Assembly: GCA_903828055.1 (NCBI GenBank)
Contig: CAIKKP010000060.1
Span: forward strand, 1 to 64,000
Source of the DNA: an uncultured bacterium
GTDB lineage: Bacteria > Patescibacteriota > Andersenbacteria > UBA10190 > CAIZMI01
Direction: 5' to 3'
DNA: 64,000 nucleotides
In this document: in pieces, positions 1,431 to 56,195 of the stretch
Layout of the letters: each line of letters starts with the position of its first letter
Position numbering within the stretch: position 1 is the stretch's first letter
The notes under the pieces: generated by a model
Told to the model about the DNA's origin: nothing
Seen by the model: only the letters and a program-made list of their open reading frames with translations
Databases searched by the model: none
Position numbers and translations under genes: made by a program

Positions 1431-3242
1431 ATGAACATCCGCAACGTCGCAATTATCGCCCACGTCGATCATGGTAAGACCACTTTAGTTGATGGTCTTT
1501 TAAAACAGGCTCACACTTTTCGTGAAAACGAAGCGGTAATGTCGCAGACGTTGATTATGGACAGCAACGACCAGGAACGCGAACGCGGGATTACAATTTT
1601 GGCCAAAAACACGGCGGTCATGTTCAATGATACGAAAATCAATATCGTTGACACTCCCGGTCACGCGGATTTTTCCGGTGAAGTAGAGCGCACCCTCAAT
1701 ATGGCCGATGGCGTTGTTTTAGTTATCGACGCCCAAGAAGGTCCTATGCCTCAAACGAAATTCGTCTTGAAAAAAGCTTTTGAACTAGGTCTCAAACCGA
1801 TTGTAGTCATCAACAAAATCGACAAGCGGGACGCTAGAATCGAAGAAGCCCTAGAAGAAACAAACGACTTATTTTTGGAACTGGCCACGCACGATCACCA
1901 CTTGGAATTTCCTGTTCTTTACGCTATTGGGCGCGAAGGAAAAGCTTGGAACGAAATGCCGGCCGATATGACTGCCCCGGCTGACCTGACACCGATTTTT
2001 GAAGCGATTATCAAACACATTCCACCACCTTTTATTGAACCTGAAAAACCATTTCAAATCTTAATTGCCGCTTTAGACTGGGACGATTATCGCGGAAAAT
2101 ATGCCGTCGGTAAAGTGCGCCGTGGTGTTGCGAAACCCGGCATGGCGGTTGCTATTATCGATAAAGACAACAAAATCGAAAACACTAAAATCGATAAGGT
2201 GTTTGTAAACCGCGGGTTAAGCCGAGAAGAAGTGCAAGAAGCCGTTGCCGGTGACATTGTGGCCTTAACCGGCCTTAAAAACGTCAAAATTGGCGATACA
2301 GTGGCTGATGCGGAACATCCGGACGTTCTCCCCACGATTGCGATTCAAGAACCTACCCTCAAAATGTCCATCGGCGCCAACACTTCCCCATTTGCCGGTC
2401 GCGAAGGCCAGTTTGTCACGTCACGCCAAATCCTAGACCGCATCAACAAAGAACTGGAAACAAACGTCTCAATGAAATTTGATCGCAGTGATGCGGGAGA
2501 ATATGTGTTATGTGGTCGCGGTGAATTACACTTGTCCGTGTTTATCGAAACACTCCGTCGCGAAGGTTTTGAATTAGAAGTTGGCAAACCGCACGTCATC
2601 ACCAAAATGGTTGATGGCGTTTTGATGGAACCGATTGAAGAATTAACCGTGGACGTTGAAACACAACATGTTGGTACTGTAACCAGTGAAATCGGTCGTC
2701 GTCGCGGTGTACTCCTTGGCAATACAGTAAATTCCGACAATACCACTCACCTGACTTTTGAAATTACCACCCGTGGATTAATCGGCTTGCGAAGCACTCT
2801 CATGACTGCTTCTCGTGGCACAGCCGTGATGAACTCACAATTTTTGCGCTTCGACAAAATGGGTGCGATTTTGCAACAACTCCGTAATGGTGTGCTAATT
2901 TCATCCGAAACAGGAAAGACTTTTTCGTACGGCCTAAATATCGCTCAAGGTCGCGGATCAGTTTTTGTTGGACCACAAGCCGAAGTTTATGAAGGAATGA
3001 TTATTGGTCTCAATTCCCGCGAAGAGGATATTGAAATTAACGTCACCAAAGAAAAACGTCTATCTAACATGCGCGCGTCCGGTTCTGATGACGCTCTGAT
3101 TCTTACCCCGCCGATTATTTTCAGTCTGGAACAATGCTTAGACTTCTTGGAAGAAGATGAATTGCTGGAAGTCACCCCAAAAAATCTCCGTCTCCGCAAA
3201 AAGATATTGAACGCCACATTGCGATCGAAAGCGAAGAGATAA
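1431..3242 (+). CDS. typA: GTP-binding protein TypA/BipA (translational GTPase)
   Basis: N-terminal AHVDHGKTTL G1 motif, DTPGHADF, NKIDK, and overall EF-G-like length and layout characteristic of BipA. Confidence 0.92.
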   Translation: MNIRNVAIIAHVDHGKTTLVDGLLKQAHTFRENEAVMSQTLIMDSNDQERERGITILAKNTAVMFNDTKINIVDTPGHADFSGEVERTLNMADGVVLVIDAQEGPMPQTKFVLKKAFELGLKPIVVINKIDKRDARIEEALEETNDLFLELATHDHHLEFPVLYAIGREGKAWNEMPADMTAPADLTPIFEAIIKHIPPPFIEPEKPFQILIAALDWDDYRGKYAVGKVRRGVAKPGMAVAIIDKDNKIENTKIDKVFVNRGLSREEVQEAVAGDIVALTGLKNVKIGDTVADAEHPDVLPTIAIQEPTLKMSIGANTSPFAGREGQFVTSRQILDRINKELETNVSMKFDRSDAGEYVLCGRGELHLSVFIETLRREGFELEVGKPHVITKMVDGVLMEPIEELTVDVETQHVGTVTSEIGRRRGVLLGNTVNSDNTTHLTFEITTRGLIGLRSTLMTASRGTAVMNSQFLRFDKMGAILQQLRNGVLISSETGKTFSYGLNIAQGRGSVFVGPQAEVYEGMIIGLNSREEDIEINVTKEKRLSNMRASGSDDALILTPPIIFSLEQCLDFLEEDELLEVTPKNLRLRKKILNATLRSKAKR

Positions 3243-3395: not shown

Positions 3396-4067
3396 GTGAA
3401 AAAGAAACACAAAAACTCGCTTTGGAAATACAACTTAATCGGCATCGCTATTTTAGCGTCAATCGCCTCGATTAGTATTGCGCAACAAATCAGTACTCCC
3501 CGCTACAGAATCACCGTAACCGAAGAAAAAAAAGGTGGCTGGTTTAGTAGCATAGGAGATGCTTTTGGAAAATTACAAATGAGCACTATCGGATACCTTT
3601 CTCCAAAAATCGGCGAAAAATTCAATGTAACTGCCGTGGCATATTCACCGACAGTAGACCAGAACGATGCCTCGCCGTGTATTACAGCCTCCGGCAGTGT
3701 TGTTCACAAAGGTGTCGTCGCCACAAATTTTCTTCCAATCGGAACACGCTTAAAAATCGGTAACGATTTTTATACCGTGGAAGACAGGATGAACAAAAAA
3801 TACAACGGCGTAAAAATAATCGATATTTGGCATCCAACAACAAAAGAGGCTATCGCCTTTGGCGCGCAAAAATTGGAGATAGAAGTACTGCCTAAAGATT
3901 TTCCCGCCACTCCCGCGCCAAATCCAAAACCGGAAAAACAAGTTGGACTATGGGAAAAAACTAAGAGCAGTGTAGTGGGAATTGGTTCTTTTCTATCCGA
4001 ACACCTTCCAACAAGAACATATCAAAAAGAAGCTGACTGTTCGAAACTATTAGAAACAAGCCAATAA
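3396..4067 (+). CDS. secreted 3D-domain protein (MltA/YocH-like cell-wall binding domain)
   Basis: GTG start. N-terminal signal/TM segment. C-terminal region matches the 3D-domain pattern (ITASG...VATN..PIGT...G..Y...DR...G..IDI). Confidence 0.6.
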   Translation: MKKKHKNSLWKYNLIGIAILASIASISIAQQISTPRYRITVTEEKKGGWFSSIGDAFGKLQMSTIGYLSPKIGEKFNVTAVAYSPTVDQNDASPCITASGSVVHKGVVATNFLPIGTRLKIGNDFYTVEDRMNKKYNGVKIIDIWHPTTKEAIAFGAQKLEIEVLPKDFPATPAPNPKPEKQVGLWEKTKSSVVGIGSFLSEHLPTRTYQKEADCSKLLETSQ

Positions 4068-4120
4068 TTACCTTTCTCAAAGCTTGATTATTGATCAGCA
4101 ATTTATTACTCTTTCGCCAT

Positions 4121-4235
4121 GGCCTCATCGTCTAACGGCTAGGACGAAGCGTTCTCAACGCTTAAATCGGAGTTCGCCCACGCACCATAAAGGTGCGGGG
4201 CGCCCAGAACCCAACGTGGTTCTTGGGCGATTCTC
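4121..4235 (+). pseudogene. 5' fragment of tRNA-Glu (positions 1-~63) interrupted by a 53-nt double-hairpin insert in the T-loop
   Basis: Identical to intact tRNA-Glu through GGAGTTCG. A 53-nt insert (4177-4229) follows, then ATTCTC, then unrelated sequence. No 3' acceptor strand is present. Confidence 0.75.
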
Positions 4236-4286
4236 TTAGAGGGAATTAATAGACAATCAAAAGAAAACAGGTAAAACTGTAATCAC

Positions 4287-4358
4287 GGCCTCATCGTCTA
4301 ACGGCTAGGACGAAGCGTTCTCAACGCTTAAATCGGAGTTCGATTCTCCGTGAGGCTA
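4287..4358 (+). tRNA. tRNA-Glu (anticodon CTC)
   Basis: Cloverleaf folded by hand. Acceptor GGCCTCA/TGAGGCT (G1:U72), anticodon loop TTCTCAA, T-arm CGGAG-TTCGATT-CTCCG. No encoded CCA. Confidence 0.8.
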
Positions 4359-4625
4359 CTCATTGATTAAGTTTTGCGAAGCAAAACTAATCCAAATGTA
4401 CATAAAACAGCCATCACGACGCGTGAGGGCTGTTTTACACAAGAATCAATGAACTCAAAGCATTACGCCAAGAGGCGGAATGCGACGAGCTACCTTTGTC
4501 TATTTGCGAAACTATCCTATGTACACAAAATGACCAAACATCCCGTTTGGTCATTTTGCACAAGAATCGAAAAACTCCGAGACTCGAGCACCCGACGGTG
4601 CTGAGTCTCGGAGCTACCATGTGAT
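4359..4625 (+). repeat. tRNA 3'-trailer structured element, two tandem diverged units
   Basis: Unit 2 (4516-4620) carries TGTACACAAAATGACCAAAC-loop-GTTTGGTCATTTTGCACAAGAATCGAAAAACTCCGAG plus a terminal CTCCGAG...CTCGGAG hairpin. Unit 1 is a diverged version. Both end in GAGCTACC. Confidence 0.7.
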
Positions 4626-9555: not shown

Positions 9556-10254
9556 CTACTTCTTTCTAATTATACACAGTGGTGTCTGTTCTGTTGTCTG
9601 TCCCAGCGGGTTATCCTTAAACAATTCGTTTATCAATCCCATATCAACACCATTTGACACCCCCAGCACATTCACGCCGATATCATTGGCATCAATAATT
9701 GCTACGCCAACTTTTAGTAATTCAGACAACTTTTGCGCCACCTTGTCCGGATCTTTCGGGGCTAATTTTGCATACTCATTGTACGGTGGCAATGTGTATG
9801 GCGTAGGCCCATCAATGGCATTGATATTCTTTCCTGCCACACGATAAAACACACCACGCACACCAAACGGCTTTGTTAGAGCCGAAACCAATGCAGCAAA
9901 GAGGATTCGTGGTGCTCCAGCCTCCCTCAAAGCCAGTTCCATTGTCCACGGACTCCCTAATCCAATCCCCCATTTTGGTTTAAAGACAAACATCACTAAC
10001 AATTTTGCCAACCATGATGGATGAATATCTTTGATTGGATATGAACGACCTTGAGTTATCGCTACAACTTTTTCTGAAATCGCCACCATATCGCCCGCTT
10101 GAATCAAAGGGGCCAAATACTGTTTTGCAATTTCTTCAATATTATCCGTTGATTTAATAACATGAGTTTTAATCGGGAATCGGAGATAATTTTCCCCGGC
10201 CACTAATCGCTCCAACTTCTTCCCCTCATTCGGCTGTAATGTAATTTCGGTCAT
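9556..10254 (-). CDS. CofE-like protein (coenzyme F420-0:gamma-glutamyl ligase family fold)
   Basis: Motifs GDMVAISEKVVAITQGR, AGKNINAIDG, LAPKDPDKVAQKL and VAIIDANDIG resemble the CofE/F420-ligase family. Function here unknown. Confidence 0.5.
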   Translation of the reverse strand: MTEITLQPNEGKKLERLVAGENYLRFPIKTHVIKSTDNIEEIAKQYLAPLIQAGDMVAISEKVVAITQGRSYPIKDIHPSWLAKLLVMFVFKPKWGIGLGSPWTMELALREAGAPRILFAALVSALTKPFGVRGVFYRVAGKNINAIDGPTPYTLPPYNEYAKLAPKDPDKVAQKLSELLKVGVAIIDANDIGVNVLGVSNGVDMGLINELFKDNPLGQTTEQTPLCIIRKK

Positions 10255-11967: not shown

Positions 11968-13086
11968 TTACTGATAATACTCAGCAATTACTCTTATATC
12001 CATATCCGACGTTAAAATAGCTTGATTATTAAATTTTAGTGTCCACATAGAGCTATCGGGATCTTTTTCCTGTGTTGATAAAAAACCACCGCTGTTCCAA
12101 GCCGACAATATCTGCATTGGATCAGCCACCGAAGAAATTGTATTTGTCGAAATGTCTTTTTTAAAATATGATTTTTGAGCATTTTTTCCACAATCACTTG
12201 AATTTTCCCATAATTTTTCACTGTAATACAAAACTTCCCGATCATCAGGAGAAAACGCAACAACATCCACATGATTATCGGCGACACCAATACTACCAAC
12301 AATTTCACCAGAAACAGGATCAATAATATCATATGCGTTTACCGCGTCACCACCATACCCATTACATACATCCCCAATAGTATTTTTCGCGACCGCCATG
12401 CGTTTTCCGCTTGTACTGACATCACCGAATCCTGGATCTCCAACTGTTCGTGAAATTGAATTGTTTGCTAAATCATAAAAATACAAGTGTGCTGCGCTAC
12501 CGAGTGGCCTCATCAGAACCACTTTTCCATCATCGCGCCAAACCCTCCCCGCAAATAGATTCGTGCTTCCCTGATTAATAACTTCATCTTTACGGTTTGA
12601 CAATGTAAACCGATGGACAAAATACTTATCAACTTCAAGAAAGTCAGTCAAATCTTGATCCCAAATAAACAATTGCTTCCCATCCGACGAATATGACGCG
12701 CTCACAACGCGTAATTTGGGAATAAATAAATCGCTTAGTTCTTTTGTTTTTAAGTTTAGAACCTGCAATTTGCTTCCCAGATTGATTAACAGATCTTTTT
12801 TATCAGGACTAAGCCCAACTTCTGGATACCCGCTACCTTCAATCTCAGCCAATTTTTCCGGTTTAGCATCACCCATTTTTCGCATAATATTTACCGTTGG
12901 CCTAAGATATTCATTCTCTGCACTTTCAATTTCTTGCGTATAAATAAGCACCGGAACAGCTACTTTAGTCTTATTCCTTTGCTGATTCATCTTACTTAAT
13001 AAAACACCACCACAAATTATTAACAAAACAACAAATAAAATACTCCATTTTTTCCAACTGCGCTTGATAATTTGACTGTAGTTCAT
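11968..13086 (-). CDS. membrane-anchored beta-propeller-like protein, N-terminus MNYSQIIKRSW
   Basis: Start trimmed to the ATG after a TATAAT box. One N-terminal TM segment, then repeated strand-rich segments (TolB/WD-like). Confidence 0.5.
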   Translation of the reverse strand: MNYSQIIKRSWKKWSILFVVLLIICGGVLLSKMNQQRNKTKVAVPVLIYTQEIESAENEYLRPTVNIMRKMGDAKPEKLAEIEGSGYPEVGLSPDKKDLLINLGSKLQVLNLKTKELSDLFIPKLRVVSASYSSDGKQLFIWDQDLTDFLEVDKYFVHRFTLSNRKDEVINQGSTNLFAGRVWRDDGKVVLMRPLGSAAHLYFYDLANNSISRTVGDPGFGDVSTSGKRMAVAKNTIGDVCNGYGGDAVNAYDIIDPVSGEIVGSIGVADNHVDVVAFSPDDREVLYYSEKLWENSSDCGKNAQKSYFKKDISTNTISSVADPMQILSAWNSGGFLSTQEKDPDSSMWTLKFNNQAILTSDMDIRVIAEYYQ

Positions 13087-13102
13087 GGGCATATTATAGC
13101 AC

Positions 13103-13690
13103 TTAAAATTTCTTAGCGATAACGTAAAAAAGATGCCAATGCTTTGGCGTACCGTTGGCGGTTTTATCGTCTTTCTCTTCTTCGTCAAACAAAATTACCT
13201 CCATGCCTGAAAGTAATTTTTCTACCTGTTCTTTGTTGTGAAAAGTCATCATTTTATCATCACTCCACGCATCGTGAACACCGAAGAATTGCCCACAAAA
13301 TATACCACCCTTTACAAGCGAACTTTTTATTTTTGTAAAAACAAGATCAAAACTTTCCGGCGAATTAAACGGCAAAGCATACATGGCCGAAGCAATATCG
13401 TATTCGTTTTTTGGAAACTCAAAATCAGCAAACGAAGAAACAAAGTAATGAAGATTTTCCGATTTTATCTCCTTCGCTTCTTTTGCCATTAGATCCGATT
13501 TATCAACAGCTATTACATCAAAGCCATTCTCTACTAAAAAACGTGTATCTTTCAATGCCCCGGCACCGACATCAATCGCCTTGCCCTTATTGACAACATA
13601 TTTAAGAGCTTTGACGAGAAGTTTTGAAGGGGGATTGTTTTTGGTAATTTGAAAATATTCCGACCAATCGTTCTTTTTAATTGATGCCAT
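13103..13690 (-). CDS. class I SAM-dependent methyltransferase (TehB/TPMT-like)
   Basis: Motif I IDVGAGALKDTRFLVENGFDVIAVD and a small single-domain methyltransferase layout. Confidence 0.65.
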   Translation of the reverse strand: MASIKKNDWSEYFQITKNNPPSKLLVKALKYVVNKGKAIDVGAGALKDTRFLVENGFDVIAVDKSDLMAKEAKEIKSENLHYFVSSFADFEFPKNEYDIASAMYALPFNSPESFDLVFTKIKSSLVKGGIFCGQFFGVHDAWSDDKMMTFHNKEQVEKLLSGMEVILFDEEEKDDKTANGTPKHWHLFYVIAKKF

Positions 13691-13706
13691 GGTTATTATT
13701 TTTTAG

Positions 13707-13778
13707 TGGGCGCAGAAGGTATCGAACCTTCGACCTTTGCAATGTGAATGCAACGCTCTACCACTGAGCTATGCGCCC
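13707..13778 (-). tRNA. tRNA-Val (anticodon CAC)
   Basis: Minus-strand read GGGCGCATAGCTCAGTGGTAGAGCGTTGCATTCACATTGCAAAGGTCGAAGGTTCGATACCTTCTGCGCCCA, a canonical cloverleaf. Confidence 0.9.
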
Positions 13779-13819
13779 GAAAAATTATAAACTCATTAAT
13801 TTTCTAAAATACATTTTTT

Positions 13820-13933
13820 TGGTATCGCCCAGTACCACGTTGGGTACTGGGCGCCCCGCACCTTTATGGTGCGTGGGCGAACCTTCGACCTTTGCAATGT
13901 GAATGCAACGCTCTACCACTGAGCTATGCGCCC
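13820..13933 (-). pseudogene. 5' fragment of tRNA-Val (positions 1-~62) interrupted by the same 53-nt double-hairpin insert in the T-loop
   Basis: Identical to tRNA-Val up to GGTTCG. The insert (13825-13877, 50/53 identical to the Glu-locus insert) follows, then ATACC and an AT-rich 45-nt spacer before the intact tRNA. Confidence 0.75.
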
Positions 13934-15117
13934 TAATTCTTCCCCAGTTCCGCGTCAATATAGCGTTCGATTGCCGGCACGTCAAACCTTTCCGTGGGAT
14001 GATTACAGAACCTTTCTAATGCTTCCCAACCAACCCTTACTTCATTCAACGGACTCCCGCCAAAGATCGCTCGCAAAATCGGAACCGCCCAGTTTACTTC
14101 ATAGGTAATCGTGCGCCATGATGAAATTTTGCTATTGGCAATCACTTTCCCAAGCAAAGACCAATACCGTGTTCTGTTAGGAATTTTTACCGGCGCATTG
14201 TGATTATCATCTCCCAAGCTCCACTCCGAAAATAGCTCTCCGGTCTTATTTCTTGCTGTTCGCGGGTGATTAACATGAATATGCACAAACCAAGGTAGCA
14301 GTTCCGCCAAATCCTTTTCCAGAGCATCATAATTGCCACTATAAGTCAGCAAGGCATGCGCTGGATCAAGCGTACAACCAAGCACACCACGCTCAATCCA
14401 CTCCACGCCAATCTGCGATAGAACGTCTTTTAAACTTCCAAAAAATGTACCAATTTCTTCTTCACCCGGATGTGAATAGGTATTTTCAAGTGAAATACAC
14501 ACTCCAGCAGTAAGCGCGTCCCCCATTACCGACTTAATAGAAGAAACAGTCGCCTGAATTGACTCTTCCCTTCCAATACCCTTCTCTCTTCGCCCACAAT
14601 GCAAAACGTAAATGATCGGATGCTCAATCTTAAAAACCTTTCTTAACTCCCCCAACAAATTAATTTCCCGTTGCATATTTCGAATATTTTGCTTAAGAAT
14701 TCGAGGATCACCGGGGTTCATGAAAAAACGTGACAGCAAAAAACCCTGACCGGCGTAACCACCATGAAAAGACCTTAAATCAGTCATTCCGTACCCCTCC
14801 AGAGTTTTTTTAAATTCATTTACAACCTCTTGTCGAATCTCCGATTTTATATTGAACCAATTAAAAAACGGCAGAAATATTTCAACATTTTTCTCCATTA
14901 AGCGTGAAAGCCCAACAGCCTTTTTGTGATCAACAAAAAAACCTACCACCCTCAAAAAACGAGCCAAAAAAGACGTGATACAAATTTTATAAGGCTCTTG
15001 CGCGAGGTTGCCGGGAGAGAGAAACTGCGTCTCGTTCAAAAGATTAGGGCTTGGTAATAAATAAACACTCCATATTTTGTTCAATACGCTCTGAATACGA
15101 GTGTTTTGATTGAACAA
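13933..15117 (-). CDS. sugar-phosphate isomerase/epimerase-like TIM-barrel protein (xylose isomerase-like fold)
   Basis: ISLEN and HIHVNH metal-site-like motifs. The annotated N-terminus overlaps the MITE-like element, so the true start is probably downstream (e.g. the MEKNVEIF Met near 14901). Confidence 0.4.
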   Translation of the reverse strand: MFNQNTRIQSVLNKIWSVYLLPSPNLLNETQFLSPGNLAQEPYKICITSFLARFLRVVGFFVDHKKAVGLSRLMEKNVEIFLPFFNWFNIKSEIRQEVVNEFKKTLEGYGMTDLRSFHGGYAGQGFLLSRFFMNPGDPRILKQNIRNMQREINLLGELRKVFKIEHPIIYVLHCGRREKGIGREESIQATVSSIKSVMGDALTAGVCISLENTYSHPGEEEIGTFFGSLKDVLSQIGVEWIERGVLGCTLDPAHALLTYSGNYDALEKDLAELLPWFVHIHVNHPRTARNKTGELFSEWSLGDDNHNAPVKIPNRTRYWSLLGKVIANSKISSWRTITYEVNWAVPILRAIFGGSPLNEVRVGWEALERFCNHPTERFDVPAIERYIDAELGKN

Positions 15118-15223
15118 AATATTGAGACGTACTGTACGTACGTTGAAAGATTTTTGATTGAGAAATGCTTGTAGTCAGAGATGGAGTGGACATAAGATGG
15201 AGCGTTTATTTATTACCAAACCC
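15046..15223. mobile_element. MITE-like non-coding element copy 1 (about 178 bp, about 25-bp terminal inverted repeats)
   Basis: TIRs GGGCTTGGTAATAAATAAACACTCC and GGAGCGTTTATTTATTACCAAACCC. The interior is about 85% identical to 37091..37269 and has a central hairpin ACGTAC/GTACGT. Confidence 0.6.
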
Positions 15224-15228
15224 TATGG

Positions 15229-15831
15229 TTATTTAGTGATCTTTACTCGCAAATTTGGCGCGAGCGCGTTCAGTAGTTCAACATTCTTACTTGCATACAC
15301 TTCCTTCAAAAAATTATCATTCATATTTTTCCGATATTCATACTCAGTTTCGGTCATTAAGGTGTAATTAATTTCCGAGCCTAGTTCTTCCTCAACCCCC
15401 AAAACAAAATTTTTCAATACTTCTTCCTTAACGTCACCGACAATCAATAAGTCAGTCGGCGCTGTCTTACTTTTCGAAAAAAGACCGGTAAGTAAGACTA
15501 ATTTGATGTTACCAACTTTTTTAATACCCTCGAACAACCGATCTTGAAGCGGTTTACCTGTTTTATGCATCAATCTTGCCAAATCCTCCAATAAGGCAAA
15601 TTTGGGGTTTACAGCATAATATTTCTTGCTTTTTCGCACGTGCGTCGTGAGTAAGCCAATACGCCGTAAATTTTCCACCTCGCGCCGAATCGAGTTAACG
15701 CGTTCTTTTGTAAGTCTGGTTAGTTCACGGACATAATATGGACGACGAATCCCATTAGTAAAGAGAAAAAGCAACTTTACGCGTGTTCTGGACCCAAAAA
15801 GACGTTCAAGTGGTATAGGCATAGATATCAA
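15229..15831 (-). CDS. winged-helix transcriptional regulator-like protein
   Basis: N-terminal wHTH-like segment (YYVRELTRLTKERVNSIRREVENLRRIGLL). The C-terminal domain is unassigned. Confidence 0.4.
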   Translation of the reverse strand: MISMPIPLERLFGSRTRVKLLFLFTNGIRRPYYVRELTRLTKERVNSIRREVENLRRIGLLTTHVRKSKKYYAVNPKFALLEDLARLMHKTGKPLQDRLFEGIKKVGNIKLVLLTGLFSKSKTAPTDLLIVGDVKEEVLKNFVLGVEEELGSEINYTLMTETEYEYRKNMNDNFLKEVYASKNVELLNALAPNLRVKITK

Positions 15832-15969
15832 GATATTATGATGCTTTTCACAAGAAGTAAAGTGACAATTTTTACCTGATCATGATTCCAAAATTTGGTA
15901 TATTTTCAATTTTCAATGACCAATTATCAAATAATTACCAATTCTTTATTTTTCAAGTGCGACAAAGTT

Positions 15970-23443: not shown

Positions 23444-23664
23444 AGTCGTGAATGATGAATAATGAATGAAGAATGCTGAATACGAACAACGAACACCAAT
23501 GAACAATATATCAAGAATACCAGAATTGGCCCTTTTGGCACATCTTTTTGGCACCACCGCGTTTCTTGACCATATTCATAATAAATGTTAAGAAATAGAC
23601 GTTCCAACTAATCATGTCGATAGGGTTGGATGTTTTGTTTCCCAATTTTGGAGGAGTTAGAGTT

Positions 23665-32174: not shown

Positions 32175-33770
32175 TTATGGTTGAATATTCGTTATATCTT
32201 TTTTGAGCCATTTTTCCGACTCTGGATCAAATTCATAAAGCTCGGTTGTTTTTGTGTCAGCCAGGTTTCGTCCTTTGGCCAACACCCATTCCCCCGCAGC
32301 GGGCGCGTAAACGCCGATAAGCGTATATTTTGAAGCCTGACCGCCCACTCCATCAACTTGGATCAATCGGCGCCAAAGCGTTGATCCCACCAAGTAATCG
32401 ACGTAAATTGCCCCAGGAACATGCGTAAACCAAACTCGTTGTGCGGTAACCGTTTCTCCCTCTCCCGCCACTGCAATCTCTCGGATATGCCCCATAACAT
32501 AACCGACAATCACTTCTTTTGCAAGCGGGAATTCGGCAGCTTGAGAATAGCCCTCCACAACAACATTAAGACGCAAAAATTGGATGATATCCGTCCGACT
32601 GGAAACCCCCGTAATGGAAACATCATTAAGGGCAGGCAAAATCTCTTGCGATACAACCTTACCGGTTTTTACGACCCTGGAAACCATTCTCTCCCCTGTT
32701 CCACCGGGCAAAATATAAGAAATTTCTGATCCGTCACCGGCCAAGATTACAGAACGCGAGTTTGCCTCGAGGTTGTAACTTTCTTTCGCGTCTTTGGTAA
32801 TGTTCCAAATTTTCACATCACCCTCCCCTTCTCTCACAACCAATGCCCCACCATTGCTCCACCCCAAGATTTCCACCTTGTCGGTTAAAAACGACGCCAC
32901 ATCTTTTTCTTGATTTAATTTTAAATCCCAAACACGCAAAACCGTTTTGACATTTTTTCCGTCTTTTTCACTTATCGCATAAATAACTTGTGTCCCACCG
33001 GGAGATGGAATCATCGAGTTACCCTGTAAGATATTTTTCCAATCAAATTTTATCGGCAAAATATCGGCACCTGTTCTATTGGGCGAACCTCTCAATACTT
33101 TTTCTCCGTCACGCAATAAAAATCCACCATTAGCATCCCAAAAAGGACCTTGCGTATTCTGGTTCAATCTCTCCACAGAAACACGCTTACGCGCTTTTTC
33201 CGCGGAATATGTCCAAAGTTCGGTCATTTTTTTTTGCGTACCATCCAAATAAAAAGCAATCGTCTTACCGTCATTGGCGGAAAAAACAGAACGCGGTTCA
33301 ACAAGCGGTGTTGAATCGGAAATCAAGGTTTGTTTATTATTTTCAATTCCTACACCAACCAAACTTCTTCCTTGTTCCCGAATATTTTTATTTTCAATTA
33401 AATAATAAATGTTTGTTCCATCCGTTACCGGCTTAACCGTCCGATCCACATTATCGGGTGGCGTAATAGTGCGAATAATACCATCGGAAGACAAATACAA
33501 ATCAGTCCACTGTTCAATTCCTTCTTTAGGTCGTTCGGAGACAACATATTTCGCCAATAAAATATCATCATTTGTTTTTTTAACGCCGGTAGTTTTAATC
33601 GTCTTGTTTTGATTAACCGATTGCGTCTCATCCGCCAACGGTGTGGCCGTGGGACTCAACGTCCCATTTTTTCCTCCAAGCGATATTTGACGCAGAATAT
33701 CCCCGCCATAAAAATAGGCAATCGTCACGACAATTATTCCGCCAATAATCCCAAGAAAGAATCTGCGCAT
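32175..33770 (-). CDS. membrane-anchored beta-propeller-like hypothetical protein
   Basis: Start trimmed to MRRFFLGIIGGIIVVTIAYF (TM segment). Strand-rich repeats follow. Confidence 0.45.
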   Translation of the reverse strand: MRRFFLGIIGGIIVVTIAYFYGGDILRQISLGGKNGTLSPTATPLADETQSVNQNKTIKTTGVKKTNDDILLAKYVVSERPKEGIEQWTDLYLSSDGIIRTITPPDNVDRTVKPVTDGTNIYYLIENKNIREQGRSLVGVGIENNKQTLISDSTPLVEPRSVFSANDGKTIAFYLDGTQKKMTELWTYSAEKARKRVSVERLNQNTQGPFWDANGGFLLRDGEKVLRGSPNRTGADILPIKFDWKNILQGNSMIPSPGGTQVIYAISEKDGKNVKTVLRVWDLKLNQEKDVASFLTDKVEILGWSNGGALVVREGEGDVKIWNITKDAKESYNLEANSRSVILAGDGSEISYILPGGTGERMVSRVVKTGKVVSQEILPALNDVSITGVSSRTDIIQFLRLNVVVEGYSQAAEFPLAKEVIVGYVMGHIREIAVAGEGETVTAQRVWFTHVPGAIYVDYLVGSTLWRRLIQVDGVGGQASKYTLIGVYAPAAGEWVLAKGRNLADTKTTELYEFDPESEKWLKKDITNIQP

Positions 33771-33903
33771 GTTTATGATCCAAGTATAACCCAAAAGCTT
33801 GGTTCTAGACGATTCGCAAAAAATCAGGCATGCTAGCGAACATAGATTGACGCAAAGTTCGTCTTTGCGAGGTCGCATGCAAGCGTGCCGAAGCAATCTG
33901 TAA

Positions 33904-33975
33904 GCCGGCGTAGCTCAGTGGTAGAGCACTTCATTGGTAATGAAGAGGTCGTGGGTCCGATTCCCACCTCCGGCT
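33904..33975 (+). tRNA. tRNA-Thr (anticodon GGT)
   Basis: GCCGGCGTAGCTCAGTGGTAGAGCACTTCATTGGTAATGAAGAGGTCGTGGGTCCGATTCCCACCTCCGGCT, with one C-U mismatch in the acceptor stem. Confidence 0.8.
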
Positions 33976-34101
33976 CTCGAGATTTGTTTCGCTCTGCGAA
34001 ACTATAAAATGTACACAAAATGACCAAACAGGACGTTTGGTCATTTTGCACAAGAATCGAAGAACTCCGAAAATACGCGTCAACAGACACGTATCTTCGG
34101 A
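33976..34101 (+). repeat. tRNA 3'-trailer structured element (copy after tRNA-Thr GGT)
   Basis: Starts at CTCGAG immediately after the discriminator base. GTTTCGC/GCGAAAC hairpin, then the 14-bp hairpin CAAAATGACCAAAC/GTTTGGTCATTTTG, then CTCCGAA...TTCGGAG. Confidence 0.75.
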
Positions 34102-34699: not shown

Positions 34700-34941
34700 T
34701 TGAATTAGTTTTGCTTCGAACACTAAAGGTAGCTCCGAAATTTTGCGTCTCTTGTCGCAATCTTTCGGAGTTCTTTAACTCTTGTGCAATAACCCTGTTA
34801 TCACCCGAAGGGCTCCGAAACTTTGCGCATCCGAACGCAAATATTTCGGAGTTCTTCGATTATTGTGCAAAACGACTCAACGGGATGTTGAGTCGTTTTG
34901 TGTACATCTTTTTTGTTTCGCGAAGCGAAACTTATCTCGAG
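34700..34941 (-). repeat. tRNA 3'-trailer structured element (copy after tRNA-Thr TGT) plus a partial second unit
   Basis: Minus-strand read CTCGAGATAAGTTTCGCTTCGCGAAAC...TGTACACAAAACGACTCAAC-ATCCC-GTTGAGTCGTTTTGCACAATAATCGAAGAACTCCGAA...TTTCGGAG, then a degenerate repeat ending GAGCTACC. Confidence 0.7.
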
Positions 34942-36489: not shown

Positions 36490-37083
36490 TTAAAGTTCCA
36501 TTCTTTGAAAACGCTCAACGAAAATATTTTCACCAATTTCTCCAATTTTTTGCGCAATCAAGTCACCGACGGTAATTTCGGGATTTTTTACAAAAGGCTG
36601 TGAAAGCAAAGCCCGTTCCGCCCTAAACTTGTCCATTTTTCCTTTAATGATTCCTTGAGCGATATTTTCCGGTTTGCCTAAACCAGCCACTTCTTTTTCT
36701 ACCGCTTCTTGCTCCTGCTTAACCAGTTCAACAGGAATAGAATCAGCGCTTACCGCCAACGGATCAGACGCGGCAACATGCATCGCGAGGTCTTTTGCCA
36801 GTTCTTGAAAAACAGGATTCATTGCCACAAAATCCGTCTCACAATGCAAAGAAACCAATGCCGCCAATTTATTATTACTATGAACATAACAACCAAGCAT
36901 GCCTTCAACTGCCGAACGATCAGCCTTTTTAGCTTGTTTGATTTTACCCTTTTCACGCAAAAACTTAATCGCCTTTTCTTCATCACCATCGGAAACCAAA
37001 AGGGCCTCTCTTACATCCATAATCCCAACACCCGTGCGGGCACGAAGTTGACGAATATTTTCCGTCGTAATTGTTGTTGTCAT
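36490..37083 (-). CDS. tsf: elongation factor Ts
   Basis: N-terminal UBA-like IRQLRARTGVGIMDVREAL and its position after rpsB. Confidence 0.9.
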   Translation of the reverse strand: MTTTITTENIRQLRARTGVGIMDVREALLVSDGDEEKAIKFLREKGKIKQAKKADRSAVEGMLGCYVHSNNKLAALVSLHCETDFVAMNPVFQELAKDLAMHVAASDPLAVSADSIPVELVKQEQEAVEKEVAGLGKPENIAQGIIKGKMDKFRAERALLSQPFVKNPEITVGDLIAQKIGEIGENIFVERFQRMEL

Positions 37084-37090
37084 TTTTTTA

Positions 37091-37269
37091 GGGCTTGATA
37101 ATTAATAAACGCTTTAAGATTATGTTCAATGCGCTTCAAAGATGACTGTCTTTGATTGAACAAAATCTTGAGACGTATTTGACATACGTTGAAAGATTTT
37201 TGATTGAGAAGCAGTTGTATTTGGAGATGGATTGGACATAAGATAAGGCGATTATTAATTATCAAGCCC
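37091..37269. mobile_element. MITE-like non-coding element copy 2 (179 bp) in the rpsB-tsf spacer
   Basis: TIRs GGGCTTGATAATTAATAAACGCTTT and AAGGCGATTATTAATTATCAAGCCC. Interior matches 15046..15223. The central hairpin ACGTAT/ATACGT covaries with copy 1. Confidence 0.6.
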
Positions 37270-37284
37270 TTATTATTAATAATA

Positions 37285-38007
37285 CTACCCCTTAACGGCT
37301 GTGGTGGCCACATCAACCACCTTGATCCCACCCTTACCTTCAATGATGGCGTCAGCGATAACTTTTACGACCACTTCCAAAGACCGTACTGCGTCGTCAT
37401 TGGCAGGAATCGGATAATCGATAACGGATGGGTCGGCATTAGTATCAACCAAAGCAATTGTCGGAACCTTACGCCGAACAGCTTCTTTCACGGCAATTTT
37501 TTCGTTGTGCGCGCCAACTAAAAACACAGCATTGGGCATTTTGCGCAATTCCTTTAACCCTTGCAAAACATCATCTAAACGTTTGATTTCATTTTTCAAC
37601 ACCGCACGCTCTTTCTTCGTAAGCATTTCCGCTTCAGGAGATTCCAGTGTAATCCGGAAATTTTCCAATTTATTAATGCTTTTCAAAATTGTTTCAAAAT
37701 TGGTGAATGTTCCACCCAACCAACGCGTGGTAATAAACGGCATTCCACAACGTTCAGCCTCGGCCTTAACAATGGCACGAGCCTGTCTTTTGGTTCCGAC
37801 AAACAACACTACCCCACCTTTACCTGCGATATTGCGCGCAAAAGTGGCCGCCTTTTCAAGAGAGCTTAATGTTTGCTGTAAATCCATCACGTGGATGTGA
37901 TTACGTTCCGTAAAAATATATGGCTTCATCTTGGGGTTCCATTTGGACGTTTCGTGTCCAAAGTGGACACCGGCCTCAAGAAGGTCTACTAAACTTGGTA
38001 ACGACAT
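37285..38007 (-). CDS. rpsB: 30S ribosomal protein S2
   Basis: [20 protein letters not shown]-terminus. Confidence 0.95.
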
Positions 38008-41153: not shown

Positions 41154-41157
41154 GTCA

Positions 41158-41209
41158 CTTTAAGGGTCACCCCTAAAGTAAAACACTACTTTAGGGGTGA
41201 CCCTTAAAG
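41158..41209. repeat. palindrome CTTTAAGGGTCACCCCTAAAGT-aaaacact-ACTTTAGGGGTGACCCTTAAAG between prfA and prmC
   Basis: 22-bp perfect arms. Belongs to the TTTAAGG...CCCTAAAGT family with 51376..51423 and a solo half at 50768. Confidence 0.75.
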
Positions 41210-41222
41210 TCGCACGCAATTT

Positions 41223-50200: not shown

Positions 50201-50775
50201 AAAAAGTGAAGATTGGCGGAATTATTACAACCATTAAAAAAATCATCACCCGCACCCAAAAAGCCATGGCTTTTGCCACCGTCGAAGACCGTTCCGGTTC
50301 ACTGGAAGTTTTAGTGTTTGCAAAACTATTAGAAACATCACAAGATCTTTGGTTGGAAGATAAAGTTTTGATTATTGAGGGTCGTGTCAGCGACAAAGAC
50401 GGCGTACCAAAAATTTTGGCTGATTCAGCCGTCGAATACGACCCGGCCAATCCTCCAAAGCCTCTCAAAAACAAAGCTGTGTTTGATGAAAAGCCACCAA
50501 TCAGCATCACTATCAGTGTTCCGGTCAGTGCGACAAAACGCACTTTCATGGACTTAAAAGCCATTCTGGAAAAAGTCGGCAAAGGTCGCACTGCTGTCTT
50601 CTTGGAAATCCAAAAAGAAAACCAAAAAGATTTGTTAAAAACATCCTATCTGATTACTTATACCCCATTTCTCCAAAACCTATTTGGAAATATTTTAGGA
50701 CCGAACTGCATAAAAGTAGAGGAAGCAAAACCGGTAATTCAACACAAGTTTGAACCGGCAGTGGAAGAACTTTAA
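47245..50775 (+). CDS. dnaE: DNA polymerase III alpha subunit
   Basis: N-terminal PHP domain (HLHTHSHYSLLDG) and 1176 aa of typical DnaE architecture. Confidence 0.95.
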   Translation: MPEFIHLHTHSHYSLLDGLSKVDDMVKRAKELNMSAIGLTDHGAMYGIIDFYSTCKKNGIKPIIGVETYVANRSHTQKETGIDNRRYHLTLLAKDMTGYKNLIKLVTTAHLDGYYYKPRVDKELLRANHEGIIALSGCIGSEVGRAITGEGKEKAIQVIREYQEIFGVENYYLEIMHHPDVDNFEKWRFMLIELSRELNIPLVATQDSHYLRPDDAEAHKTLVAISTNTDVGDTGIFAGKGHYHFISTEEAMEWFSDIPEAVTNTKVIADRCNIELTLGKFIFPDFALEEGKTADQMLDELTQKGMTFHGLTNDTATDERRKYELDVIKQKNYAPYFLVVADLLRFARKSDIYTTVRGSAAGSLVAYLSGITNVNPIEFQLPFERFLNPFRPSAPDIDMDFADNRRGEVIEYAKQKYGDDKVAQIGTFGTMMARGAVRDVARALNKPYELGDRVAKLIPMGSQGFPMTIDHAMEIEPELKKLYDNDPEIKHILDISRKLEGTMRHVSVHAAGVVIAPRPLVEYVPIQLDPKDGDRRITQYDMYTVGEDGVGLTKLDFLGIRNLAILEDAVRLVKQHHNIKIDIERIPFDDKKTFEMLAKGETEGLFQLNGEGMTKHLMDLKPSTIHDINAMVALYRPGPMNNIPEYIARKQGRSPIKYFHPKAQNFLAKSYGILVYQDDLMFTALELAGYNWETVDKFRKAIGKKIPAEMAKQHIIFVEGCQKNSNLTKDQAEAIWNLFEPFQGYGFNKAHAACYGRVAFQTAYMKANFPAEYMCAVLSAESGDIEKIAIIINECKRMEIPVLPPDVNFSHKGFTVLKANDQIPKDEIRFGLHTVKNVGEHIVEAIIAEREKAGPFKDLIDFFSRVHSRDLNKKSVESLAKAGAFDTLAERNQILENTDTLLNFNRDIGKQLLTNQANLFGMMPAEVARPKVTLKSVEPATQKQRLSWEKELLGLFISGHPLMDIAPALAEATTQIADITIHNSNEKVKIGGIITTIKKIITRTQKAMAFATVEDRSGSLEVLVFAKLLETSQDLWLEDKVLIIEGRVSDKDGVPKILADSAVEYDPANPPKPLKNKAVFDEKPPISITISVPVSATKRTFMDLKAILEKVGKGRTAVFLEIQKENQKDLLKTSYLITYTPFLQNLFGNILGPNCIKVEEAKPVIQHKFEPAVEEL

Positions 50776-51375
50776 GGGTCACCCCTGAAGTAAAGAGCAA
50801 GGCTCGCCCATGACTGATACACCCTTCGACTCCTCGCCCAGTTGGGCTTGTCGCTCAGGGTTATTTTATTTTGTTTGATAACAAAATAAAATAAAAAAAC
50901 CGCGCGTCAGACGACGAACGGTAACTATTTTTTCGACCCAGAAACCGGCAAGCGACACAACACATACGCTGTCAACAGTTGTACCGGCATAGCACACAAA
51001 ACCACAAAACAGGCGAATGCCTTAGAGACTGTTTCGTAATCACCGACCAAAGTGATAATAGCCCAGGTCAACAAAACGACCGTAATGCAGGCATGAAAAA
51101 CCAATGTCAGCCCGCGCATCTCTACGGCAAATGAACTCCTGGTTGCTCCTGAAACATCACTTCCTTCTTCGCTCGCAACTGCCGGCGGAAGAACCCCTAT
51201 TCCCCGACCACATACAAGATCTCTTCGCCGTCTGCGCCCAAGGCCGTCTAGGCCGTCTAGGCAAAAACCGGACTCTTCTTGTGATTCTGACATATTTCAC
51301 CCCGCAGAAATTAATAACGAACCAACGCCACCTCGTTTTTTACACCTTGTTACTTATTTTGTCCACTTTAAGCCA

Positions 51376-51423
51376 CTTTAAGGAGTATCCCTAAAGTTGC
51401 AACTTTAGGGATACTCCTTAAAG
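51376..51423. promoter_or_regulatory. 48-nt perfect palindrome CTTTAAGGAGTATCCCTAAAGTTGC/GCAACTTTAGGGATACTCCTTAAAG, 40 nt upstream of thrS
   Basis: Perfect inverted repeat with a preceding CCACTTTAAG duplication. Candidate operator or attenuator. Confidence 0.5.
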
Positions 51424-51461
51424 TCCTTTTCTAATCGCCTCCCACTTGCTATAGTCTTTAC

Positions 51462-55234: not shown

Positions 55235-56053
55235 TCATGCGGGAACCGACGACGTTCTCCTGAGCCTGGCGAAGTTTTCCCAAGCCTCATCACGTTTCAA
55301 TTTGACCAAAACCGCATCCGGCCCGCCCAAAGACAAGACCTTGGTCCATTCTGCAGTTTCTTGAATAGCGCATTCTTCTGCCACACGAATATCGCCCAAT
55401 TTCTCAAAAATCCCCGATTTCGTGCGGTACAGATTGGCTAGGTGATGGCTACCCTTCCCATCACAATCAATTTTGTACCTACTCATCGCCACCTCCAGAA
55501 GTCCCAATGCCATAGCGACATTTTCAAGACCCAGCGGGTCACCGATGTAAACCTGCGCCGCGTCACGGAACAAATTGGCGACCTCCACCCCTTCCTGCCC
55601 AATGATAGCCTGAAGGGTATTCAACATCGGATCATAGTTTCTCCAAAAATGGTAATTTTGATCACCCGCAAAATCGACAAACGCGCGCGCAACTGCCAAC
55701 CGGTCAATGATTCTTCCCGATTCATTACTACATAACACCCTACCGGACAATTCATACCGATAATCCGCCAGTAGGTACAACTTACACAACAATGCCCACT
55801 GGTCTTCACCCGCCGCTACGGCGTTTTTCATCGCTTCGGTAAAACGACCGAGTCGATAATGACACCAGGCTGCCCAACCAAGCGCTTCACTTATTGGATT
55901 TTGACCACCGGCCATCAGCACTTCCAACTGTGACAAAGCGCCGGCATAATCTTTTTCGTTAAAAAGCCGTTCGATTTCGGCAAATTTGTTCTCGTCCGAC
56001 ATGATTATTCTCCCGTGAAAATGAACACGTTTCGACCGTAAACATCCAAACAA
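55235..56053 (-). CDS. TPR-like hypothetical protein, paralog 1
   Basis: About 40% identical to 56260..57021. Both start MSDENK(F/Y)A. Confidence 0.5.
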   Translation of the reverse strand: MFGCLRSKRVHFHGRIIMSDENKFAEIERLFNEKDYAGALSQLEVLMAGGQNPISEALGWAAWCHYRLGRFTEAMKNAVAAGEDQWALLCKLYLLADYRYELSGRVLCSNESGRIIDRLAVARAFVDFAGDQNYHFWRNYDPMLNTLQAIIGQEGVEVANLFRDAAQVYIGDPLGLENVAMALGLLEVAMSRYKIDCDGKGSHHLANLYRTKSGIFEKLGDIRVAEECAIQETAEWTKVLSLGGPDAVLVKLKRDEAWENFARLRRTSSVPA

Positions 56054-56168
56054 CCGTCATATTTAAATATCACGGATACGGATTTTTGGCAAGAGAGAGA
56101 CGTGATTATGATATACGATTTATGATTTATGAAGGACGAATGTTTCGCGCCGTCGATTCATCAATCAT
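56051..56168. promoter_or_regulatory. 118-nt conserved promoter block, copy a (117/118 identical to 57071..57188)
   Basis: On the minus strand it contains TTGCCA, a 17-nt spacer and TATTTAAAT, plus GATTTATGATTTATGA direct repeats. Confidence 0.6.
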
Positions 56169-56195
56169 CATTCATTATTCGTCATTCATATAAAA

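Follow-up and report, generated by a model that had tools for sequence, protein, structure and literature searches.

The window analyzed here is a stretch of 64,000 nucleotides from an uncultured lake bacterium of the Patescibacteriota (contig CAIKKP010000060.1 of assembly GCA_903828055.1), and it carries two copies, A and B, of a short repeated element. A preliminary description, made from the sequence alone, had reported two MITE-like copies, and their positions were borne out within 1 nt, with sharp ends and approximately 83% identity. It had also placed both copies between co-directional minus-strand genes and the second of them in the rpsB-tsf spacer, and the gene coordinates agree. The neighboring genes, the two copies, and their terminal arms are as follows:

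13933..15039, minus strand: TIM-barrel (AP_endonuc_2) gene, start corrected; PF01261; initiates at TTG 15039-15037, with a 6-nt gap before the left end of copy A
15046..15224, plus strand: element copy A, a 179-nt member of the A-type subfamily; CM score of 189 bits on the plus strand and 92 on the minus strand
15046..15071, plus strand: left terminal arm of copy A, alignment columns 1-26; sequence AGGGCTTGGTAATAAATAAACACTCC
15199..15224, plus strand: right terminal arm of copy A, columns 156-181; pairs with the left arm
15229..15822, minus strand: winged-HTH-like gene, 197 aa; a 4-nt gap separates its stop codon from the right end of copy A
36490..37083, minus strand: tsf (EF-Ts); PF00889; a 6-nt gap separates its ATG from the left end of copy B
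37090..37270, plus strand: element copy B, a 181-nt member of the B-type subfamily; CM score of 198 bits on the plus strand and 87 on the minus strand
37090..37115, plus strand: left terminal arm of copy B
37245..37270, plus strand: right terminal arm of copy B
37285..38007, minus strand: rpsB (ribosomal protein S2); PF00318; a 14-nt gap separates its stop codon from the right end of copy B

The two copies have the same orientation, and homology between them breaks off abruptly at each end. The terminal inverted repeats (TIRs) are approximately 26 bp long (26-27 bp), the arms of the window copies are 87-93% complementary over 27-39 nt, and the termini of the element are TAGGGCTTGGTAAT... and ...ATTACCAAGCCCTA. 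The G+C content of the copies is 33-38%, compared to 43% for the window. Within the window, neither the conserved 22-mer nor the TIR pattern occurred outside copies A and B, and shuffles predicted 0 matches.

A search for further copies, which the preliminary description had proposed, recovered nine in related genomes and metagenomes: three on three contigs of MAG CAIZMI01, one in GCA_030647555.1, and five on metagenome contigs, all from related uncultured Patescibacteria (CPR) in freshwater metagenomes. Together with the two window copies, the family comprises 11 copies at 11 different, unrelated sites and in either orientation, with lengths of 178-181 bp in 11 of 11, pairwise identities of 71-94%, and nhmmer E-values of 1e-46 to 1e-57. 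The copies were collected by exact-word searches, so diverged members will have been missed and conservation overestimated. As far as sampled, the family is restricted to a single clade of uncultured Patescibacteria from fresh water. Relative to the host genes, seven of the 11 copies are antisense and four are sense. Copies A and B were present in all same-species contigs, with no within-species presence/absence difference seen; some short contigs end inside copy B, as is expected of a repeat.

Comparison of occupied with empty sites supports the view that the element has moved, with four independent insertion events; an empty or uninterrupted counterpart is known for 4 of the 11 sites. The rpsB-tsf spacer is 201 nt long in the window and in every same-species contig and 21, 22, and 25 nt long in relatives whose EF-Ts is 94, 80, and 77% identical, respectively. 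Upstream of the TIM-barrel gene, the spacer is 10 nt in the relative L056. The copy at L045 interrupts a LysE-family gene, the product of which reads MPYL...ISPGPDF before the element and NMAVRNSL... after it; intact LysE-family orthologues are 208 aa long and have GGATTTT ATT ATGGCC at the insertion site. A fourth copy, at L020, interrupts a KilA-N-like gene, and removal of 180 nt gives a 288-aa open reading frame (ORF) that aligns with the homologue at L014. The insertion places are thus A/T-rich sites in very short operon spacers and, at least twice, coding sequences. At these same spacers, relatives carry at least two further hairpin inserts that are unrelated to the element. A connection between the element core and KilA-N genes via L014 was rejected as a coincidence, with 27 of 27 spurious 21-mer hits encoding LIEQN[ILF][ED] in frame.

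The DNA flanking the copies consists of T/A runs, and a TA lies 0-2 nt from both ends in 10 of the 11 copies. Three copies (B, L024, and L031) have perfect TTA/TTA flanks; A, L035, and L045 read TA/GGGC..(G/A)CCC/TA; and the remaining copies have one extra base on one side. The left-flank tetranucleotides differ (ATTA, TTTA, TTAA, ATAA, GATG, GTAA, CTTA, and others), and the right flank is likewise TA enriched. Under a TA-duplication model, site A would have had a 14-nt spacer, the same as that of L055. At the LysE site, there was a net gain of 182 nt and 3 nt of the target were apparently replaced; here the same model predicts a frameshift as well as a TAA in frame, and the reading frame is not restored. 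No clean target-site duplication was found at either the LysE or the tsf junction.

The preliminary description had credited the element with TIRs and a small central hairpin. The TIRs were found, but the entire element is one continuous hairpin of 69 pairs, 26 outer and 43 inner. The compensating C:G to U:A change that it had noted in the apical stem is real; the apical hairpin of copy A, given there as ACGTAC-TG-GTACGT, has instead a 5-nt loop as in copy B. The inner features of the two hairpins are as follows:

15108..15115, plus strand: internal loop of copy A, 5' side; GATTGAAC
15127..15143, plus strand: apical hairpin of copy A, ACGTAC-TGTAC-GTACGT
15155..15161, plus strand: internal loop of copy A, 3' side; TGATTGA
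37154..37161, plus strand: internal loop of copy B, 5' side; GATTGAAC
37173..37189, plus strand: apical hairpin of copy B, ACGTAT-TTGAC-ATACGT
37201..37207, plus strand: internal loop of copy B, 3' side; TGATTGA

The internal loop (GAUUGAAC/UGAUUGA in RNA form) was 100% identical across 11 of 11 copies and is unpaired in the consensus structure. Over the alignment, 97.6% of paired cells could pair, compared to 91.1% in shuffles, none of 500 of which reached the observed value, and to 40-48% when the columns were slid. Pairs in which both sides changed numbered 22, compared to 11.4 in shuffles (again 0 of 500), and among them the apical pair 89-95 is CG in seven copies and UA in four. The inner 43 pairs comprised 403 Watson-Crick, 69 G:U, and 0 A:C cells, with pairs passing through UA, UG, and CG states. 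These results demonstrate that the inner two-thirds of the hairpin, those 43 pairs, are kept by compensatory and G:U-preserving changes on the plus strand only.

The folding energies differ between the strands in the same direction. The consensus energy was -86.7 kcal/mol on the plus strand and -45.3 kcal/mol on the minus strand; for copy A the values were -77 to -79 and -64 to -66 kcal/mol, and for copy B they were -82 and -56 to -57 kcal/mol, respectively. Across the copies, the minimum free energy ranged from -63 to -101 kcal/mol, and the fold z-scores of the window copies were -12.6 to -13.5. The minus-strand fold uses an alternative helix between columns 28-41 and 66-79, which was compatible with the alignment (89.6% paired) but is made up of invariant columns and showed no covariation (224 of 500 shuffles equaled it). 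The restriction of the constraint to the plus strand hints at a single-stranded intermediate.

Mean identity among the 11 copies was 88% in the core and 72-74% in the terminal arms, which fall into two types plus hybrids. In L031, the left arm is of type 2 and the right arm is of type 1, and the arms of L031 and L035 are degenerate or hybrid and pair poorly. The arms of L001 differ in sequence from the others and still pair near perfectly. This "perfect covariation" of the L001 outer stem had been considered as proof of selection on pairing and was downgraded to subfamily structure, because L031 and L035 reveal two arm types that recombine or decay. Neither the strand-specific constraint on the inner hairpin nor the higher conservation of the core than of the arms appears in the preliminary description.

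Several copies lie immediately beside genes, with a start codon 1-12 nt from an element end at A, B, L003, L005, L031, and L035, and this closeness is explained by the tiny A/T-rich spacers. The start of the TIM-barrel gene had been expected to lie downstream of the annotated one, and the TTG identified here confirms it: L055 and L056 share the conserved N-terminus LNE..GNLAQEPYKICITSFLARFL, and in L056 the same TTG is called as the start. Two special functions at starts were rejected, namely that the element replaces the Shine-Dalgarno (SD) sequence of tsf or that its hairpin joins a split SD and AUG. Relatives have AAGGAG at tsf, start-adjacent copies have no SD on the other flank, and the genome scarcely uses SDs (2 of 32 genes versus a 5% background).

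No ORF was conserved across the subfamilies of the 11 copies. A small protein gene was therefore not accepted: a 37-49-aa minus-strand ORF and a 39-aa plus-strand ORF are open in some copies only, and a 1-nt indel together with stops makes the frames differ from one subfamily to another. When the window was compared to Rfam, only tRNAs passed the gathering score, and the sole matches over copies A and B were to hairpin models of plant miRNA precursors, all below threshold (at most 43 bits versus cutoffs of 100-200). A consensus scan lent no support to arm promoters that face outward like those of Correia elements: it predicted 0 sites at copy A, and the 4 predicted at copy B compare with 1.8 +/- 1.4 expected. 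An intrinsic terminator was also rejected, with no T-run following the hairpin on either strand.

We then considered the enzyme that might move the element. Among the 60 ORFs of the window that are 80 aa or longer, none had a transposase, recombinase, or reverse-transcriptase domain, in agreement with the earlier statement that no transposase is present, and a Y1_Tnp domain was likewise absent from the window ORFs. The proposal that mobilization would occur in trans, which follows from this lack of a transposase domain in the window, is a reasonable one. The cognate transposase that the preliminary description had suggested looking for did not turn up: the window and approximately 400 kb of related loci contained no autonomous IS with matching termini, and viral, phage, and plasmid collections yielded no autonomous partner either. 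A TIR hit on a viral contig (L053) was a chance coding match, and the single HTH_38-bearing protein in the vicinity of a copy (positions 14894-15526 of L045) lacks a catalytic domain.

Taken together, the above-described results support the MITE interpretation made earlier, and the element is very probably non-autonomous mobile DNA, a bacterial MITE of the Correia/ERIC/RUP type that is ~180 bp long, A+T-rich, and non-coding. Bacterial MITEs are defined by a length below 200 bp, TIRs, 5'-TA-3' termini, A+T richness, and long stem-loop transcripts (PMC2229807; PMC10969869). More broadly, the class takes in sizes of up to 200-500 bp and TIRs of ~4-30 bp; its members enter A+T-rich, mostly intergenic DNA, young copies are bordered by direct repeats of the target, and a related autonomous IS supplies a transposase for the shared termini. 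The present element is shorter than 200 bp, non-coding, and A+T-rich, has TIRs and a stem-loop, and occurs as dispersed copies with presence/absence differences. Many accepted bacterial MITEs, such as Correia, have no known autonomous partner. Since the element encodes nothing, an enzyme from elsewhere must move it, presumably one encoded elsewhere in the genome. The TA flanks suggest that this may be a DDE transposase of the IS630/Tc1-mariner type with TA as its target, and the terminus (TA)AGGGCTTGGTAAT resembles mariner-type ITR starts (TTAGGTTGG...). Propagation of the family may proceed via, or depend on, the folded single-stranded plus strand, as either ssDNA or transcript. The window copies would be passengers in the rpsB-tsf and winged-HTH-TIM-barrel operons, and the operon mRNA would bear the hairpin in its minus-strand form, which is the less stable of the two. 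Some observations count against the MITE reading. The arms are less conserved than the core, the opposite of usual transposase-bound TIRs; ordinary double-strand cut-and-paste does not predict a strand-specific constraint on the interior; and there are the missing autonomous partner and the LysE junction without a clean duplication.

In an alternative that we regard as unlikely, the element is a single-strand-type mobile hairpin: the folded plus-strand ssDNA would be recognized via the invariant internal loop and would be cut and inserted by an HUH/Y1-type enzyme, like REPINs by RAYTs or like elements derived from IS200/IS605, or by another structure-specific recombinase, and the terminal arms would need only to pair. 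The plus strand-only constraint on the inner hairpin (69 G:U and 0 A:C cells), the invariance of GAUUGAAC/UGAUUGA, and the greater conservation of the core than of the arms all fit this proposal, as do the almost perfectly pairing L001 arms and the lack of a clean duplication at the two best-resolved junctions, and REPINs are reported to be hairpin-forming mobile doublets kept by compensatory change (PMC3116915). Conversely, the window showed no Y1/HUH transposase, and the arms of L031 and L035 pair poorly. TA/TTA is enriched on both flanks, as a duplication would leave it, and not just on the 5' flank, as a target word on one side would, and the variable left-flank tetranucleotide does not provide the fixed 4-5-nt 5' word of the IS200/IS605 type. 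Unlike domesticated REPINs, 2 of the 11 copies are intragenic, and orientation relative to gene direction, used as a proxy for replication, had no clear bias (7:4). It is doubtful that the element is specified by its structure, with the ~70-pair plus-strand hairpin (ssDNA or RNA) and its loop serving as the substrate of some CPR enzyme that is not a TIR-binding transposase.

Less plausible still is a functional structured RNA, either a cis-acting operon element (an RNase III/E processing site or stabilizer) or a plus-strand sRNA gene, that was duplicated and is under selection site by site. Strong covariation and G:U asymmetry are hallmarks of constraint at the RNA level, both window copies are fixed among same-species contigs, and Correia and ERIC elements affect flanking mRNAs via RNase III/E (PMC10969869; PMC2229807). 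Set against this, 7 of the 11 host mRNAs would carry the minus strand, whose fold is ~20 kcal/mol poorer, a simple sigma-70 scan gave no convincing promoter, and a terminator-like tail is absent; moreover, two copies disrupt genes, the contexts are mutually unrelated, and there was no Rfam match. Chance or low-complexity similarity of two AT-rich spacers, which the preliminary description had named as the outcome contrary to its own reading if no more copies existed, can be dismissed, since the region is indeed A+T-rich (33-35% G+C) but nine further copies were found, shuffles gave 0 expected matches for both the 22-mer and the TIR, and the nhmmer E-values and fold z-scores are as given above.

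The MITE reading places the element among several known systems. The Correia elements of Neisseria (NEMIS or CREE) are described as 100-155 bp long with TA termini, TIR-paired long-hairpin transcripts, and no linked transposase (PMC2229807; PMC2649163). The present element shares with them ~24-26-bp TIRs, TA termini, A+T richness, a lack of coding capacity, and copies between co-transcribed genes, here at 180 bp. It differs in having no sequence similarity to them and a CPR host phylum, in that no evidence for an IHF site or promoter was found here, and in its interior, where pairing likewise extends throughout and the constraint falls on one strand. The enterobacterial ERIC (IRU, RU-1) and YPAL (RU-2) elements are imperfect palindromes of 127-168 bp that form an end-to-end stem-loop and whose orientation matters for their effect on RNA (PMC2229807; PMC10969869). 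They resemble the present family in inserting into transcribed intergenic spacers and occasionally genes, but ERIC TIRs are ~7 contiguous bp versus 26 bp here, and there is no sequence similarity. Like RUP of Streptococcus pneumoniae and other IS630/Tc1-mariner-derived MITEs, the element has TA termini and a presumed TA target and is small, non-coding, and moved in trans (PMC2229807); unlike them, it had no IS630-family transposase with matching ends among the sequences searched here, and a simple TA duplication fails to account for its LysE junction. With REPINs, it has in common a hairpin-forming mobile unit of ~100-200 nt, compensatory change, and no obvious target-site duplication (PMC3116915). 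REPINs, however, have conserved terminal REP sequences and a variable middle, whereas here the middle is most conserved; they are almost strictly extragenic, compared to 2 of 11 copies intragenic here, and no RAYT gene was seen.

The element is of an ordinary kind, but it is a new MITE family and is new for CPR/Patescibacteria, for which no description of MITEs was found in the searchable literature. CPR/Patescibacteria have streamlined genomes of ~1 Mb and are usually considered poor in mobile DNA, and the results presented here show an active MITE family in one CPR clade. The element has practical consequences as well. Gene callers were misled by it, placing the TIM-barrel start inside the element, annotating a truncated LysE, and extending ORFs into the element, and it breaks assemblies, with short contigs stopping within it. 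Together with the unrelated inserts, it shows that mobile hairpins colonize even operon spacers of 10-25 nt, including the universally conserved rpsB-tsf junction. If the structure-specified reading were true, the family would represent a new hairpin-dependent transposition system, distinct from REPIN/RAYT and IS200/IS605. The constraint on one strand of the inner hairpin provides a testable clue to how such elements propagate.

Alignment of the two copies originally reported at 15046 and 37091 confirmed that they are similar from end to end (approximately 83% identity over the full length), with similarity ending sharply on either side. Both lie among co-directional minus-strand genes, as follows.

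15046-15224, copy A, 179 nt, between the winged-HTH-like gene and the TIM-barrel gene
15229-15822, minus strand, winged-HTH-like gene flanking copy A
15039-15037, minus strand, TTG at which the conserved N-terminus of the TIM-barrel (AP_endonuc_2) gene begins, 6 nt outside copy A
37090-37270, copy B, 181 nt, filling the rpsB-tsf spacer
37285-38007, minus strand, rpsB, on one side of copy B
36490-37083, minus strand, tsf, on the other side of copy B

The 22-mer TTGAAAGATTTTTGATTGAGAA was common to both copies, and within the window this word and the terminal pattern AGGGCTTGRTAATWAATAAACRCT were each confined to copies A and B, with 0 expected in shuffled sequences. The inverted repeats and central hairpin of the preliminary description were present, but the copy A hairpin reads ACGTAC-TGTAC-GTACGT rather than ACGTAC-TG-GTACGT, and the architecture is one end-to-end hairpin instead of TIRs plus a small central one. 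The suggestion that the TIM-barrel start lies outside the element was borne out by alignment with the related locus L056, and the long ORF overlapping copy A is an artefact. Rfam held no family for the element; just sub-threshold plant miRNA-precursor models matched, which merely reflects the presence of a long hairpin.

The search for more copies that had been proposed yielded nine beyond A and B. A 22-mer scan of species-representative genomes recovered three, on three contigs of the CAIZMI01 MAG, and a metagenome scan with the second conserved block TTTGATTGAACAAAATNTTGA matched 32 loci, five of which (L005, L020, L024, L031, and L035) were full-length copies by profile search; the other 27 were rejected as coincidental matches that encode LIEQN[ILF][ED] in frame. 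The eleventh copy was found in L045 (GCA_030647555.1), a relative that had been retrieved for a different purpose. The 11 copies were 178 to 181 nt long and comprised A-type, B-type, and intermediate forms with 71 to 94% pairwise identity, a conservation that is overestimated, as copies were found by exact words and diverged members were missed. Each conserved block was also invariant among the copies not selected on that block. When the 11 copies were combined in a covariance model, neither the window (scanned with filters off) nor approximately 140 kb of related loci yielded an additional or diverged copy. The REP-like short palindromes (ACTTTAAGGGTCACCCCTAAAGT and variants) found at gene ends in the window (41157-41213, 50769-50794, and 51375-51424) were 24-bit matches of this model. 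EF-Ts similarity identifies the host clade as Patescibacteria, with Ca. Andersenbacteria the nearest named relatives (approximately 55% identity).

The rpsB-tsf spacer was 201 nt in the window and all same-species contigs and 21, 22, and 25 nt in relatives with 94, 80, and 77% identical EF-Ts, and the spacer upstream of the TIM-barrel gene was 10 nt in L056. The L045 copy interrupts a LysE-family gene (MPYLALIATATLVHLLALISPGPDF in the upstream part, NMAVRNSLVYSKKTG... in the downstream part) for which more than 100 homologues are 208 aa; at the site, the closest homologues (94% and 92%) read GGATTTT-ATT-ATGGCC and GGATTTC-ATC-ATGGCC, and L045 reads GGATTTT-T[AGGGC...GCCCT]AAAC-ATGGCC. A KilA-N-like gene is interrupted in L020, where excising exactly 180 nt restored a 288-aa ORF that aligned with the homologue in locus L014 through the junction. 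Orientation relative to host genes was mixed (7 antisense, 4 sense). Three short same-species contigs (L039, L043, and L044) terminate inside copy B, as expected of a repeat; the element breaks metagenome assemblies. Together, these results show a small dispersed element, non-coding and with TIRs and TA-rich junctions, that within a narrow clade has entered both genes and spacers. Gene callers started ORFs spuriously or extended C termini within the element (locus L054 at 2166; locus L037 at 2771-3004), and further miscalls were the truncated LysE P0126 and ORF tails in L002 and L020.

Two other, unrelated hairpin inserts were found in relatives at the same spacers, which are therefore recurrent landing sites. 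In L045 (JAUSJG010000027.1, ~9861-10000), an insert of approximately 140 bp with TIR CCCAGTAATACAACTTCCAA separates the AAGGAG Shine-Dalgarno (SD) from the tsf ATG, in the spacer held by copy B in the window, and is an event independent of copy B. In locus L055 (Ga0129283_10002460, ~3614-3717), a third hairpin (104 nt, TIR TACYGCACTRATTCAGT, GAG/GAG flanks) was inserted directly behind codon 3 of the TIM-barrel gene and is likewise strand-asymmetric (-35.4 kcal/mol for the gene-sense strand, -20.1 for the other). L045 also carries a variable island of approximately 3 kb (12702-15935), missing from the syntenic window region, with the element-interrupted LysE gene, a PBECR3 nuclease-like gene, and an HTH_38-only protein (210 aa).

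With element limits set at GGGC...GCCC, TA lay 0 to 2 nt from both ends in 10 of the 11 copies; TTA/TTA was perfect in B, L024, and L031, and TA|...|TA was exact in A, L035, and L045. Under TA duplication, the ancestral spacer at site A would have been 14 nt, equal in length to that of L055. The LysE junction showed a net gain of 182 nt and an apparently replaced Ile codon, and under the TA model an in-frame TAA remains, so that the duplication is not clean; at the tsf junction, the AGGAG of relatives is missing. Over all copies, the target duplication is probably TA, or possibly TWA, but unproven.

In all 11 copies the + strand folded approximately 20 kcal/mol better than the minus strand, with 6 to 13 G:U pairs per copy versus 0 to 2. 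The alignment consensus formed 69 pairs (-86.7 kcal/mol) on the + strand and 55 (-45.3 kcal/mol) on the minus strand. Paired cells reached 97.6%, versus 91.1 +/- 0.5% in shuffled alignments (0/500) and 40 to 48% with partners slid, and both-sided changes occurred in 22 pairs versus 11.4 in shuffles (0/500). The inner 43 pairs contained 403 Watson-Crick, 69 G:U, 0 A:C, and 1 other combination, and the outer 26 pairs, the arms, contained 253, 14, 6, and 11. This excess of G:U over A:C, with UA, UG, and CG states all present at several pairs, shows that interior pairing is maintained specifically on the + strand; the arms look nearer to neutral decay. Mean identity was 72 to 74% in the arms, which comprise two types plus hybrids (L001, L031, and L035), and 88% in the core, where the internal loop GAUUGAAC/UGAUUGA was invariant. 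This is the inverse of the usual MITE pattern.

Bacterial MITEs are A+T-rich elements of <200 bp with TIRs, a terminal 5'-TA-3', and long stem-loop transcripts (PMC2229807; PMC10969869), a definition that the element matches; it most resembles Correia/NEMIS, ERIC/YPAL, and RUP. As reported earlier, no transposase is present: the 60 window ORFs of at least 80 aa contained no transposase, recombinase, or reverse-transcriptase domain, and no autonomous partner was found among viral contigs, phages, plasmids, and the fetched loci. An enzyme encoded elsewhere would mobilise the element in trans, and the TA flanks suggest a DDE transposase of the IS630/Tc1-mariner type. The main rival is a REPIN/IS200-like single-strand mechanism recognising the invariant loop. 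It is favoured by the asymmetry in G:U pairs, by a core better conserved than the arms, and by junctions that are not clean, but we consider it improbable given a variable left-flank word, TA enrichment on both flanks, two genic insertions, and no Y1/HUH gene within the window. From the one-strand constraint and the random orientation to host transcription, we infer that selection would act on source copies as they propagate through a folded + strand intermediate, either ssDNA or RNA, and not on each inserted copy.

No ORF was conserved among the copies, and neither a convincing promoter nor a terminator was found at the element. The idea that it replaces or bridges the tsf SD was rejected because this genome scarcely uses SDs: GGAG, GAGG, or AGGA occurred 4 to 12 nt before the start in 2 of 32 Pfam-supported window genes versus a 5% background. 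Window gene leaders are A/U-rich, and close relatives do carry AAGGAG ahead of tsf. Start codons lay 1 to 12 nt from element ends in six loci because operon spacers are tiny and A/T-rich.

The window holds other repeats. Modules of 65 to 76 nt (91 to 97% identical; 4505-4580, 33995-34070, 31054-31118, and 34843-34907) adjoin tRNA genes, each containing a hairpin of type CAAAATGACCAAAC...GTTTGGTCATTTTG, and a 2.8-kb segment (31048-34079) lies between inverted repeats of 127 nt in which tRNAs are included. Tandem, near-identical (98%) tRNA/tRNA-like pairs occur at 13707-13778 / 13874-13933, the second member of which scored just 41 bits and may be truncated, and at 4118-4176 / 4284-4358, with 95% complementarity between the two spacers (4172-4226 versus 13828-13882). 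Adjacent paralogous genes (55238-56053 and 56263-57021; 272 and 253 aa, no Pfam match) have 94%-identical 140-nt upstream/5' regions (56049-56188 / 57069-57208), 1020 nt apart. A 958-aa ORF (23614-26487, + strand) had Pfam matches to MVP_shoulder (E 3.4e-14) and Vault_3, and a protein resembling the Major Vault Protein is unusual for a CPR bacterium.

The literature searched contained no description of MITEs in Patescibacteria/CPR. This kind of element is well known, but the family is new and the lineage is one in which MITEs are undescribed; the unusual strand-specific constraint merits a direct test.
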